DNA from: Escherichia coli
GTDB taxonomy: Bacteria; Pseudomonadota; Gammaproteobacteria; Enterobacterales; Enterobacteriaceae
Assembly: GCF_003991155.1 (NCBI RefSeq)
Contig: NZ_CP031293.1
DNA: 64,000 nt
Direction: 5' to 3' (one strand)
The position numbers and the translations under genes were made by a program. Of the stretch, positions 16,796 to 33,134 are shown piece after piece. Every line of letters begins with the position of its first letter. The first letter of the stretch is position 1. Under the pieces are notes generated by a model, which saw only the letters and a list, made by a program, of their open reading frames with translations, was not told the DNA's origin and ran no database searches.

Positions 16796-17614
16796 ATGAC
16801 CACACGCGTGATTGCTCTCGACTTAGACGGCACCTTATTGACCCCGAAAAAGACCCTGCTTCCTTCATCGATAGAAGCCCTGGCCCGTGCTCGCGAAGCA
16901 GGCTATCGATTAATCATCGTCACAGGTCGCCATCACGTCGCTATTCATCCTTTTTATCAGGCGCTGGCGCTGGATACACCTGCTATTTGCTGTAATGGCA
17001 CCTATTTGTATGATTATCATGCAAAAACCGTGCTGGAAGCGGACCCAATGCCCGTTAATAAAGCCCTGCAACTCATTGAGATGCTGAATGAACACCACAT
17101 TCACGGTCTGATGTATGTCGATGATGCAATGGTCTATGAGCACCCGACCGGGCATGTCATTCGCACGTCTAACTGGGCGCAAACCCTGCCGCCGGAACAG
17201 CGTCCGACTTTCACACAAGTCGCTTCTCTGGCTGAAACGGCGCAACAAGTTAACGCCGTATGGAAGTTCGCCCTGACGCACGATGACCTGCCGCAATTGC
17301 AGCATTTTGGTAAGCATGTCGAACATGAACTGGGACTGGAGTGTGAATGGTCCTGGCACGATCAGGTTGATATTGCACGCGGCGGCAACAGCAAAGGTAA
17401 ACGTTTGACGAAATGGGTTGAGGCACAAGGTTGGTCGATGGAAAACGTCGTGGCATTCGGCGATAACTTTAATGATATCAGTATGCTGGAAGCCGCTGGT
17501 ACAGGCGTGGCGATGGGCAACGCCGATGACGCGGTAAAAGCGCGCGCCAACATTGTGATTGGTGATAACACCACCGACAGCATTGCCCAGTTCATTTATA
17601 GCCACCTGATTTAA
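16796..17614 (+). CDS. ybhA: HAD-superfamily phosphatase (pyridoxal phosphate phosphatase-like)
   Basis: ATG 16796 MTTRVIALDLDGTLL (HAD motif I DxD); 272 aa. Confidence 0.85.
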   Translation: MTTRVIALDLDGTLLTPKKTLLPSSIEALARAREAGYRLIIVTGRHHVAIHPFYQALALDTPAICCNGTYLYDYHAKTVLEADPMPVNKALQLIEMLNEHHIHGLMYVDDAMVYEHPTGHVIRTSNWAQTLPPEQRPTFTQVASLAETAQQVNAVWKFALTHDDLPQLQHFGKHVEHELGLECEWSWHDQVDIARGGNSKGKRLTKWVEAQGWSMENVVAFGDNFNDISMLEAAGTGVAMGNADDAVKARANIVIGDNTTDSIAQFIYSHLI

Positions 17615-18673
17615 TCAGGCGGTTATCGACACACTTTTAATTTGCGCGTACAGCCACAGGCCTGGTTTGATCGCCAGTTCATCCCTGGCCCACGGGCTGA
17701 TACGCGCCCACAGCGTTTTACCGCCGACTTCCAGCTCCACTTCCACCTGGCCGTTGTCGTCATAACTATTAACAACTTTTGCCCGCAATACGTTACGAAT
17801 GCTGGTTTGCTGCGGCGGTTGTAAAACCAGAGAAACATCGGAAGCCTGAATGCGGATACGTAGCGCAGCTTGCAGCGGTTCGTCCAGCTTATTGACCCAC
17901 AAATGCTGATCGCCCAGCGCCAGCGCGGTCATCGCGTAATGCGGATGATGCTCAAGCACCGTCACTTTCAGAATGCTACTTTGTTGCTCTTTCGGCAGCC
18001 ACGGATTCATCACGCTACTGCCCCACACTTCTTCCAGCGCGCCAAAGGCTTTCACCTGACCGTTTTCCAGTACCATCACTCTGTCTGCCAGATGGAGGAT
18101 CTCATCCAGCGAATGGCTGACATACAACATCGGAATGTTGATTTCCCGCGTCAGACGTTGCAGATAAGGCAACAGTTCGCGTTTACGCGGAATATCCAGT
18201 GACGCCAGCGGTTCATCCAGCAACAGCAATTCCGGTGCTGTCAGCAAAGCCCGACCAATCGCCACGCGCTGTTTTTCGCCTCCGGACAGGCTGCCTGGTA
18301 AACGATCAAGCAACGGTTCAATGCCTAAAAGCGCCACCAGCTTATCGAACTGATCGACCATGCTTTTCGCCATGCCGTAGCGCAGATTGCCACGCACTTT
18401 GTAATGCGAGAACAGCCGCGCATCCTGAAACACATAGCCTACGCGACGCTTTTCTGGCGTCAGGCAGATACCTTTATCGGCGTCATTTAGTACCCGACCA
18501 TTGAGGACAATCCGCCCTTTTTGCGGGCGCGTCAGCCCACTGATGGCGTTAATCAGCGAGGTTTTTCCGGCACCAGAGACACCAAAAATAGCGGTGATGC
18601 CATTGGCGGGCAGCGTTTCATTAATCGTCAGGCAATGGTTGCCCAACGTCTGGGAAAAATTCAGTTCCAGCAT
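17615..18673 (-). CDS. modC: Molybdate ABC transporter ATP-binding protein
   Basis: 352 aa; Walker [13 protein letters not shown] signature LSGGEKQR. Confidence 0.93.
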
Positions 18674-29901: not shown

Positions 29902-30282
29902 ATGAAAATGACAAAACTGGCCACACTATTTTTGACTGCCACTCTAAGCCTTGCCAGCGGTGCCGCACTGGCTGCCGATAGCGGAGCGCAAAGCAATAAC
30001 GGCCAGGCAAACGCCGCAGCTGATGCGGGCCAGGTAGCCCCTGATGCCCGTGAAAATGTCGCGCCAAATAACGTCGACAATAACGGGGTAAATACCGGTT
30101 CTGGCGGCACAATGCTGCATCCGGATGGTTCTTCAATGAACAATGACGGCATGACCAAAGATGAAGAGCACAAGAACACCATGTGCAAAGATGGTCGCTG
30201 CCCGGATATCAATAAAAAAGTCCAAACCGGTGATGGCATCAACAATGATGTCGATACCAAAACCGACGGTACCACGCAGTAA
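29902..30282 (+). CDS. ybgS: Secreted glycine/asparagine-rich small protein
   Basis: 126 aa with signal peptide [24 protein letters not shown]. Confidence 0.85.
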
Positions 30283-30303
30283 CCCTGCGAAATAGCCAAT
30301 AAT

Positions 30304-30335
30304 GGGAGAGCGGAGTCTCTCCCTTTTAATTTTTC
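30304..30335 (+). terminator. Rho-independent terminator after ybgS
   Basis: gggagagcggagtctctccc hairpin followed by ttttaattttt. Confidence 0.65.
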
Positions 30336-30395
30336 CCTTCTAAAAGCAGTATGATGTCATAAAGTTAAGTGAGAATAATTAAGGGATGACTCGTC

Positions 30396-31337
30396 ATGGC
30401 GCACTCACACTCACACACTTCCTCACACCTGCCAGAAGATAATAATGCTCGTCGCTTGTTGTATGCTTTCGGCGTGACTGCCGGGTTTATGCTCGTAGAA
30501 GTCATTGGTGGTTTTCTTTCCGGTTCTCTGGCATTGCTGGCCGATGCAGGTCATATGTTGACCGATACTGCCGCCCTGCTTTTCGCCCTACTCGCCGTGC
30601 AATTTTCACGTCGTCCTCCCACCATTCGCCACACTTTCGGTTGGCTAAGATTGACCACGCTCGCGGCGTTTGTGAATGCCATCGCCCTGGTGGTAATTAC
30701 CATTTTGATTGTCTGGGAGGCGATAGAACGCTTCCGCGCGCCGCGTCCGGTCGAGGGCGGCATGATGATGGCAATTGCCGTGGCTGGATTGCTGGCAAAT
30801 ATACTTTCTTTCTGGTTACTTCATCACGGCAGCGAAGAGAAAAACCTCAACGTGCGAGCAGCGGCACTGCATGTGCTCGGGGACCTGCTGGGTTCGGTTG
30901 GGGCTATTATTGCCGCGTTGATTATTATCTGGACCGGCTGGACACCTGCTGACCCCATTCTCTCAATACTGGTGTCGCTTCTGGTTCTGCGTAGCGCTTG
31001 GCGACTGTTGAAAGATAGCGTGAATGAATTACTTGAAGGTGCACCGGTATCGCTGGATATCGCTGAACTGAAGCGTCGTATGTGCCGGGAAATCCCGGAA
31101 GTCCGCAATGTGCACCATGTACATGTATGGATGGTAGGCGAGAAACCGGTGATGACGCTGCATGTGCAGGTGATCCCGCCACACGATCACGATGCCTTGT
31201 TGGATCAGATCCAACACTACCTGATGGATCACTATCAGATTGAGCACGCCACCATTCAGATGGAATATCAACCTTGTCATGGGCCAGACTGCCACCTGAA
31301 TGAAGGGGTGTCTGGCCATTCACATCATCACCATTAA
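30396..31337 (+). CDS. zitB: Cation-diffusion-facilitator zinc exporter
   Basis: 313 aa; His-rich N- and C-termini ([16 protein letters not shown]), CDF transmembrane core. Confidence 0.93.
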
Positions 31338-32053
31338 TGGGACAGCGCGCGTGAGCCTCTTTCGCGTGCGCTGTTGATCCACATCCGGCTGCCGTTGAGC
31401 GCAATAAAGGTCAGGATGATGTACTCCAGAGACATGGCGTAAACGCCCTGAAGTGCAAAAATAACGACGCTAATCACGTTAATAATCACCCACAACAGCC
31501 AGTTTTCCACATATTTACGCGTCATCAGAATCATTGCCACGATAGATAACACCATCATGCAGGAATCCCAGAACGGGAAAGCGTCCGGTTGCAGTTCAGG
31601 CATCGCAACCTGTAATCCTAATGCTTGCATGATGATGACTGCCACGCGGGTCAAAAATGCAAACACCGGATTGATAAATACCGTCATCAGACCAATCGAA
31701 ACAACGCAAACCGCCAACCAGCTTAGCGCCTTCGGCAATGGCAACCAGCGAATTTTCAACTCCGCCTCGTTCTGACTGGTTTGTCGCGACCACGCATACC
31801 AACCGTAAATATTCGCGGCAAAGAAAAACACCTGTAATAGCAGGCTGGCATACAGCTGAATCTGAAAGAAAATAATGCCAAACAAGGTGACGTTGATCAG
31901 GCCAAAAAAGTAGTTGCTGATCTTCTCCAGACTGGCAAGGCCAATACACAGCAACCCGGCGATTGTGCCTACCGCTTCGATCCATGAGAGATCATAACCG
32001 CCTGCCCCTATTGGTATATGTACCAGGATATTCTGCACACTAAAAAAATCCAT
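31334..32053 (-). CDS. pnuC: Nicotinamide riboside transporter
   Basis: 239-aa hydrophobic protein; 3' end converges on and overlaps zitB stop by 4 nt. Confidence 0.92.
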
Positions 32054-32090
32054 CTTTCCCCCAAAGCGTAACGTTACGCCTTATTATTCG

Positions 32091-33134
32091 TTATCCACGT
32101 AGTGTAGCCGCAAATTCCAGCATACGATTGAGCGGCACCAGCGCCCTCTCTCGCAGCCTTTCATCAACATGAACCTCGTGATTGCTTCCTTCCTGTTCTA
32201 ATGCCTCTGCGATAGCCCGAAGGCCATTCATGGCCATCCACGGACAATGCGCGCAACTGCGGCAGGTTGCGCCCTCACCCGCGGTTGGTGCTTCCAGTAA
32301 CTCTTTATCTGGCACCGCCTGCTGCATTTTGTAGAAAATGCCCCGATCGGTTGCCACGATAAGCCGCTGATGTGGCAATGTTTTCGCAGCAGCGATCAGT
32401 TGACTGGTGGAACCGACCGCATCCGCCATATCGACAATAGCTTGTGGTGATTCTGGATGCACCAGTATGGCAGCATCCGGGTATTCTTCTTGCAAGCGGG
32501 TTAACGCCTGAGTCTTAAATTCATCATGCACAATGCAGGCACCCTGCCAGCATAAAATGTCTGCGCCCGTCTGTTTTTGCACGTAACGCCCCAGATGTTT
32601 GTCGGGTGCCCAGATGATTTTTTCACCCAAACTATCCAGATGATCAATAAGTTCGACGGCAATGCTTGAAGTTACCACCCAATCTGCCCGCGCTTTTACC
32701 GCAGCAGAAGTGTTGGCGTAGACGACGACAGTATGATCGGGATGGGCATCGCAAAATGCGTTAAATTCTTCAACAGGGCAGCCGAGATCCAGTGAACATT
32801 CAGCCTGAAGTGTCGGCATCAGAATTGTTTTTTCCGGACTGAGAATTTTGGCGGTTTCTCCCATAAATCTCACCCCCGCGACTAACAACGTAGAAGCGGG
32901 ATGCTTTGCACCGAAGCGCGCCATTTCCAGAGAATCAGAAATACAGCCACCGGTTTCTTCTGCCAGTTGTTGAATTTCGGGATCGGTGTAGTAGTGGGCA
33001 ACCATCACCGCATTACGTTCTTTTAGCAGACGTTTTATCTTCTCACGGTAATACGCTTTTTCATCAATACTTAACGGCGTCGGCTTCGGGGGGAAAGGAT
33101 AAATCGCCGCTTCAGGATCAAACATCACGCTCAT
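32091..33134 (-). CDS. nadA: Quinolinate synthase
   Basis: 347-aa translation [18 protein letters not shown]. Confidence 0.95.

Follow-up and report, generated by a model that had tools for sequence, protein, structure and literature searches.

How do the transcripts of two convergent genes come to an end when no DNA separates their stop codons? This question is raised by zitB and pnuC of Escherichia coli, which run tail to tail in the window (the whole 64,000-nt stretch of DNA analysed here). The features that make up their junction are the following.

30396..31337, plus strand: zitB coding sequence, 313 aa, a CDF-family zinc exporter (open reading frame, Pfam, RefSeq)
31334..32053, minus strand: pnuC coding sequence, 239 aa, a nicotinamide riboside transporter (open reading frame, Pfam, RefSeq)
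31334..31337, no strand assigned: TTAA, the 4-nt overlap of the two coding sequences (sequence read directly, open reading frame list, RefSeq)
31332..31339, no strand assigned: 8-nt perfect palindrome CATTAATG (sequence read directly; not kept in all species)

The zitB stop, TAA, occupies 31335-31337, and that of pnuC, also TAA, is read on the opposite strand from 31334-31336, with bases 31335-31336 common to both stop codons. The plus strand at 31330-31339 reads a-c-c-a-T-T-A-A-t-g. Both ZitB and PnuC have a C-terminal histidine (CAT) and a T follows each TAA, giving a UAAU context, and the junction reads cat-TAA-tg on the plus and minus strands alike. The original prediction that the stop codons of zitB (plus strand) and pnuC (minus strand) share TTAA at 31334-31337 is thereby confirmed, as sequence, open reading frames and RefSeq agree on it. 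The gene names that it gave also hold: the Pfam domains agree with the RefSeq annotation, the zitB product matching Cation_efflux and ZT_dimer (E 1e-50) and the pnuC product matching NMN_transporter (E 6e-50). Given these matches and the presence of same-ended orthologues in 80 species, both open reading frames are genuine genes and not over-extended predictions.

The overlap is no new find, being present in existing annotation, and its class is an ordinary one. RefSeq gives the identical 4-nt overlap in strain 2016C-3878, which matches positions 30300-32100 at 100% identity, as well as in a K-12 derivative and further strains, and the zitB-pnuC region is found in 5425 of 5426 complete E. coli genomes. 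The pair belongs to the YTAR class, defined by convergent stops that share CTAA, TTAA, CTAG or TTAG, and these four tetramers are the modal form of convergent overlap (PMC2174442, Lillo and Krakauer 2007). Between 58 (PMC2174442) and 75 (PMC4161906) convergent overlaps have been counted in E. coli. Within 50 kb of the window there are six convergent pairs, with gaps of 33, 10, -4, 147, 0 and 40 nt.

The persistence of the junction was followed in 80 other species of Enterobacteriaceae, which with E. coli make 81 sequences from genera that include Escherichia, Citrobacter, Salmonella, Klebsiella, Enterobacter, Kosakonia, Kluyvera, Raoultella and Buttiauxella; these sequences are kin, and the species fractions given here are therefore not independent counts. 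A search for PnuC homologues aimed at outgroups returned only relatives of at least 86% identity, none of them from beyond the Enterobacteriaceae. zitB lies tail to tail with pnuC in all 80 of the other species. More specifically, 69 of the 80 have a 4-nt YTAR overlap (TTAA in 42, CTAA in 10, CTAG in 9 and TTAG in 8), nine have abutting stops with a 0-nt gap, and two have a 7-nt overlap. A spacer between the two genes is found in none of the 80, despite the variation of the ZitB C-terminal tail, which is His-rich and differs among these species in both length and sequence. Judged from this comparison, the junction is old and stably inherited and not a coincidence of one genome. In configuration it is the same as the 4-nt stop/stop overlaps described previously (PMC2174442), E. 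coli having TTAA and the orthologues between them all four tetramers, and the overlap itself is no different from them; what is added here is its conservation over 80 species and the presence of flanking hairpins. These two hairpins, H1 and H2, lie on either side of the stop codons.

31275..31324, minus strand: hairpin H1 (folds, MFE profile of 81 sequences, covariation, recoding test)
31338..31381, plus strand: hairpin H2 (folds, MFE profile, recoding test, G.U bias)

H1 falls within the final ~20 codons of zitB, has a core inverted repeat (GGCCAGAC at 31281-31288 and GTCTGGCC at 31310-31317) and begins 10-17 nt past the pnuC stop on the pnuC-sense RNA. H2 falls within the final ~14 codons of pnuC and begins 1-4 nt past the zitB stop on the zitB-sense RNA; its 15-bp core has arms at 31341-31355 and 31361-31375 around a loop at 31356-31360. 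The Pfam domain of PnuC stops at residue 226, and it is the final 13 aa that are encoded over H2. In E. coli the dG is -21.8 for H1 and -25.8 for H2. Both hairpins are found in all 81 sequences, H1 with a dG of -15.5 to -37.6 (mean -25.0) at a median of 11 nt past the pnuC stop, and H2 with a dG of -9.7 to -30.3 (mean -20.2) at a median of 3 nt past the zitB stop; each begins 1-24 nt beyond the stop of its gene. An MFE profile, in which 45 nt were slid over 1401 nt centred on the junction for both strands of the 81 sequences, has its two deepest minima on both strands at -60..-16 and 0..+44, counted from the zitB stop, where the MFE averages -19 to -21 kcal/mol, the background being -9.2 (sd 3.0). 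Among the 45-nt folds of the 64-kb E. coli window H2 ranks second and H1 third. The most stable 45-nt fold of the window (-28.1 kcal/mol) is at ~56021, near a convergent LysR-like/cobO region. The sole difference from K-12 in the junction region is at window position 31364 (G here, A in K-12); the change is synonymous in pnuC and turns a U.G pair of H2 into U-A. A search of 30200-32200 gave no Rfam matches at E<=1.

Stable folds in coding sequence need not have been selected as folds. The overlap could have arisen by stop-codon drift or deletion bias, with the hairpins a neutral by-product of the encoded peptides and of GC-rich Ala, Arg, Gly and Pro codons, and 4-nt convergent overlaps are indeed the modal neutral outcome (PMC2174442). 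A synonymous recoding test that holds the protein sequence and the local codon usage fixed bears on this directly. The recoded sequences are themselves more foldable than those of control windows (-20.3 vs -17.0 and -14.4 vs -8.5); thus the amino-acid sequences also contribute to H1 and H2, which speaks for a neutral origin. The native sequences, however, are more stable than their own recodings, with a mean z of -1.9 for H1 and -1.8 for H2 and p<=0.05 in ~50% of species, whereas control windows in the same genes give z values of +0.16 and -0.33 and reach p<=0.05 in only 4-10% of species.

The pairing pattern of H1 is also difficult to reconcile with a neutral origin. Its outer helix is 89% paired, and its covariation score of 0.204 exceeds that of shuffled alignments (0.130 +/- 0.008, with 0 of 500 shuffles reaching the observed value) and that of slid controls (0.07-0.12). 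One pair joins the third positions of two zitB glycine codons, is paired in 69 of the 81 sequences against 37 expected, and makes use of GC, CG, UG, GU and AU; a second pair is paired in 60 against 44 expected. Parsimony on the pnuC tree requires no fewer than 21 independent changes in one column of the Gly-Gly pair and no fewer than 24 in the other, and the covariation of H1 is therefore not a single inherited event. Divergent lineages, namely the Buttiauxella group and one further sequence (L057), have a different H1 sequence that forms an equally strong hairpin at the same place, and a spacer has never been gained in the 80 species; both observations count against a neutral by-product.

For H2 the neutral explanation retains more of its force. 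Pairing is ~85%, barely above that of the shuffles in the two registers tested, third-position pairs are mostly or often unpaired, and most pairs are fixed by conserved amino acids. H2 was considered as a covarying RNA structure and dropped for its weak covariation, and only a bias at synonymous sites is claimed for it. H2 would thus be largely explained by the conserved PnuC peptide plus some synonymous bias. Taken over both hairpins, a wholly neutral by-product is decidedly improbable, and on the recoding and covariation evidence the synonymous sites of the zitB and pnuC tails are under selection.

The strand on which each hairpin acts may be read from its wobble pairs, because a G.U pair works on one strand and an A.C cell corresponds to a G.U pair on the other. 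On the pnuC-sense strand G.U exceeds A.C by 51:11 in the outer helix of H1, and on the zitB-sense strand by 168:49 in H2. This asymmetry fits a role for each hairpin in the transcript in which it would form part of the 3'-UTR. In E. coli taken alone, H1 folds more stably as zitB-sense RNA (-24.9 vs -20.2) and has a recoding z of only -1.1 on the pnuC-sense strand; it is therefore the multi-species data that assign H1 to its strand. Raw MFE asymmetry was discarded as strand evidence for H1 and the G.U and A.C counts were used instead, since the asymmetry is mostly compositional and the recoded sequences share it.

Two GC-rich stem-loops downstream of open reading frames are reminiscent of intrinsic terminators, which have the same element. 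Predicted rho-independent terminators lie inside the partner in ~20% of genes in E. coli convergent overlaps (PMC2174442), so that strong GC-rich stems placed right after both stops might be read as weak intrinsic, Rho-independent terminators embedded in coding sequence. A U-tract, however, follows neither H1 nor H2 in any of the 81 sequences (the tails include, for example, AGGTTGATAT and CATCCGGCTG), and H1 and H2 are for this reason not classical intrinsic terminators. A consensus scan for terminators with a stem plus a U-tract finds no site at the zitB-pnuC junction, and yet it calls the terminator of ybgS only 1 kb away.

30304..30333, plus strand: canonical intrinsic terminator of ybgS, a stem plus TTTTAATTTT (consensus scan), in contrast to H1 and H2

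That H1 and H2 act as weak intrinsic terminators is consequently scarcely credible. The earlier statement that there is no intergenic terminator is literally true, given that there is no intergenic DNA and that the scan finds no canonical site, but it overlooked two strong stem-loops in the coding tails. The ybgS terminator is matched by a Term-seq 3' end at K-12 784890/1, which corresponds to window ~30329 (PMC7815308 supplement), and it isolates zitB from upstream transcription. zitB begins 62 nt past the terminator feature and about 66-68 nt past the mapped ybgS 3' end; with so short a spacer, the zitB promoter must lie in or overlap it.

Beyond each hairpin the read-through RNA is richer in C than in G, although the two sides differ in degree.

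31416..31571, plus strand: C-rich, G-poor tract, a candidate rut region in the zitB read-through RNA, antisense to pnuC (C/G ratio, GC skew)
30970..31203, minus strand: tract with more C than G, a weaker candidate rut region in the pnuC read-through RNA, antisense to zitB (C/G ratio)

Measured in 78-nt windows, the C/G ratio of the zitB read-through tract (+79..+234) is 1.4-2.9 in E. coli and averages 1.5-1.8 over the 81 sequences, and that of the pnuC read-through tract (+131 to +364) is 1.15-1.9 in E. coli with a mean of ~0.95-1.5 over the 81 sequences, composition alone being no proof of a rut site. The tract on the pnuC side is modest and begins ~130 nt downstream. A similar arrangement has been described for Rho-dependent transcripts, which carry a stem-loop without a U-tract and a C-rich region directly downstream, and whose mature 3' end is delimited and shielded by that hairpin (PMC6061677, Dar and Sorek). 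H1 and H2 are likewise stable stem-loops placed after an open reading frame, with no U-rich tail; a C-rich tract is clear beyond H2, and beyond H1 it is weaker and more distant. They differ from those cases in that they sit within the coding sequence of the convergent neighbour, and in that the Rho dependence and the transcript ends of zitB and pnuC are predicted ones.

The locus has the order aroG (minus), ybgS (plus), zitB (plus), pnuC (minus) and nadA (minus), followed by a tRNA-Lys/Val cluster.

32091..33134, minus strand: nadA, 37 nt upstream of pnuC on the same strand (open reading frame, Pfam, RefSeq)

We take nadA and pnuC to form a NadR-regulated operon, and the transcript that enters the junction from the pnuC side is probably nadA-pnuC.

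The reading preferred here is that the 3'-end signals normally found in a spacer have been absorbed into the C-terminal coding sequence of the partner gene, with termination by Rho and trimming bounded by the hairpins; we would put its probability at roughly one half. A polymerase on zitB would pass the stop codon and at once transcribe H2, while a polymerase on nadA-pnuC would pass the pnuC stop and transcribe H1. The ribosome would leave at the stop, the untranslated read-through RNA would expose its C-rich tract, and Rho would terminate the antisense read-through further downstream. Exonucleases working 3'-5' would then trim the RNA back to the base of a hairpin (H2 for zitB and H1 for nadA-pnuC), and the hairpins may double as pause sites. 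The mature zitB and nadA-pnuC mRNAs would in this way overlap in antisense by ~100 nt (about 31275-31381), with ends predicted, on K-12 coordinates obtained by subtracting the window coordinate from 815219, at ~783834-783843 (minus strand, beyond H2) for zitB and ~783939-783949 (plus strand, beyond H1) for pnuC. Termination by Rho, the location of the 3' ends and any effect on regulation we infer from sequence features.

Published maps of 3' ends were consulted at these coordinates. The Term-seq supplement of PMC7815308 contains the ybgS end alone and none at the predicted coordinates of zitB and pnuC. As far as their data were accessible, Adams 2021, TERMITe 2025, Dar and Sorek 2018, SMRT-Cappable-seq 2018, Nanopore 2022, 3'-UTR valves 2022 and ExcludonFinder 2025 gave no zitB or pnuC 3' ends either. 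A literature search on zitB antisense transcripts and pnuC terminators returned nothing specific.

The main rival to the Rho-plus-hairpin explanation is bidirectional termination driven by collision, in which H1 and H2 pause the polymerases, a head-on encounter stops them and trailing polymerases dislodge them, with neither Rho nor a U-tract being needed. A model of this kind has been proposed for hairpin elements between convergent E. coli pairs, which are unlike intrinsic terminators, are Rho-independent and gain in efficiency as expression rises (Wang et al., bioRxiv 10.1101/2022.10.23.513370). The zitB-pnuC pair resembles these cases in being convergent and in having at its boundary a non-intrinsic element that encodes hairpins, here palindromic, devoid of a U-tract and able to fold on both strands. 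The resemblance is incomplete, however, in that zitB and pnuC have two separate hairpins flanking the stops and not one shared spacer element; for an incoming polymerase each hairpin lies beyond the other, and therefore both polymerases cannot pause at their own hairpins together. The two genes also differ from the pairs of that model in being, as we assume, weakly expressed, which would fit the undetected Term-seq ends; simultaneous occupancy should therefore be rare. Ju et al. in 2019 reportedly found by SEnd-seq overlapping bidirectional terminators between convergent gene pairs. On these considerations collision-driven termination at zitB-pnuC is possible, if on balance unlikely.

A second question is whether the predicted antisense overlap has regulatory consequences. 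The pair is among 165 convergent excludons present in at least 50% of 58 MG1655 RNA-seq samples (PMC12288877, ExcludonFinder), where it is explicitly listed for E. coli MG1655 as a transcript overlap. The original prediction that convergent transcription of the two genes runs into each other is borne out as far as this reported overlap goes (PMC12288877), but the unchecked run-in that it implied is unsupported, since a conserved hairpin and then a tract with more C than G follow each stop. The pair modC/ybhA, convergent with a 0-nt gap at window ~17614-17615, is likewise given as a convergent excludon (PMC12288877); its strongest local folds lie ~80-120 nt to each side, with none right at the junction.

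The membership of pnuC-zitB in this convergent excludome, together with the ~100-nt overlap of the predicted mature 3' ends and the conservation of that geometry in the 81 sequences, may suggest a regulatory excludon, in which transcriptional interference or RNase III cleavage of a ~100-bp duplex would make zinc export and NAD-precursor uptake mutually repressive. The listing follows almost automatically, however, because the coding sequences overlap, the genes are expressed and a 50%-coverage rule is applied. In physiology, zinc export and nicotinamide riboside uptake have moreover no evident connection, and the conserved hairpins argue for limiting read-through and against exploiting it. The literature yielded no pair-specific reciprocal expression, dsRNA or RNase III data for zitB/pnuC. 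Mutual repression is thus quite unlikely, and it is very improbable that H1 and H2 form a conserved reciprocal module that fixes the ~100-nt antisense overlap for cross-regulation of zinc efflux and NAD-precursor uptake, by RNase III or interference, across the Enterobacteriaceae.

With its hairpins read as protected or embedded 3' ends, the locus is a new case of known kinds, either Rho-dependent ends protected by a hairpin or terminators lying within a convergent neighbour. Paired coding-embedded hairpins without a U-tract, and with synonymous covariation in zitB, appear to be undescribed for the zitB-pnuC locus. zitB-pnuC would represent a clean and deeply conserved instance of dual coding, in which the final ~15-20 codons of either gene answer to two constraints, the protein that they encode and an RNA hairpin of use to the convergent neighbour. 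The locus may be a convenient natural test case for the formation of 3' ends without a spacer, whether by Rho and a protective hairpin or by polymerase collision. As zitB-pnuC illustrates, synonymous positions close to the ends of convergent genes are not neutral, and spacerless junctions of this kind should not be taken by annotators as lacking terminators. Synonymous recoding of the zitB or pnuC tail could alter expression of the neighbouring gene, although the practical value of this is modest.

Several variants were observed around the junction and elsewhere in the window. In E. coli 2015C-4498 (L085, 1133-2780) an insertion of the IS91 family truncates zitB and leaves its last 285 nt; the TTAA junction, H1, H2 and pnuC are intact in this strain despite the truncated zitB. 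pnuC contains a short direct repeat encoding LPLPKALSW at window ~31720-31760 (codons ~100-112), whose copy number differs among the E. coli proteins in the database (248-, 234- and 232-aa variants). These length variants of PnuC are internal repeat indels that leave the junction unchanged. Further along, at window ~43800-64000, there are genes absent from K-12 (a hut operon, methylaspartate mutase/ammonia-lyase genes and an IS1 copy), and the window thus spans a strain-variable island beside the cyd-tol-pal region.
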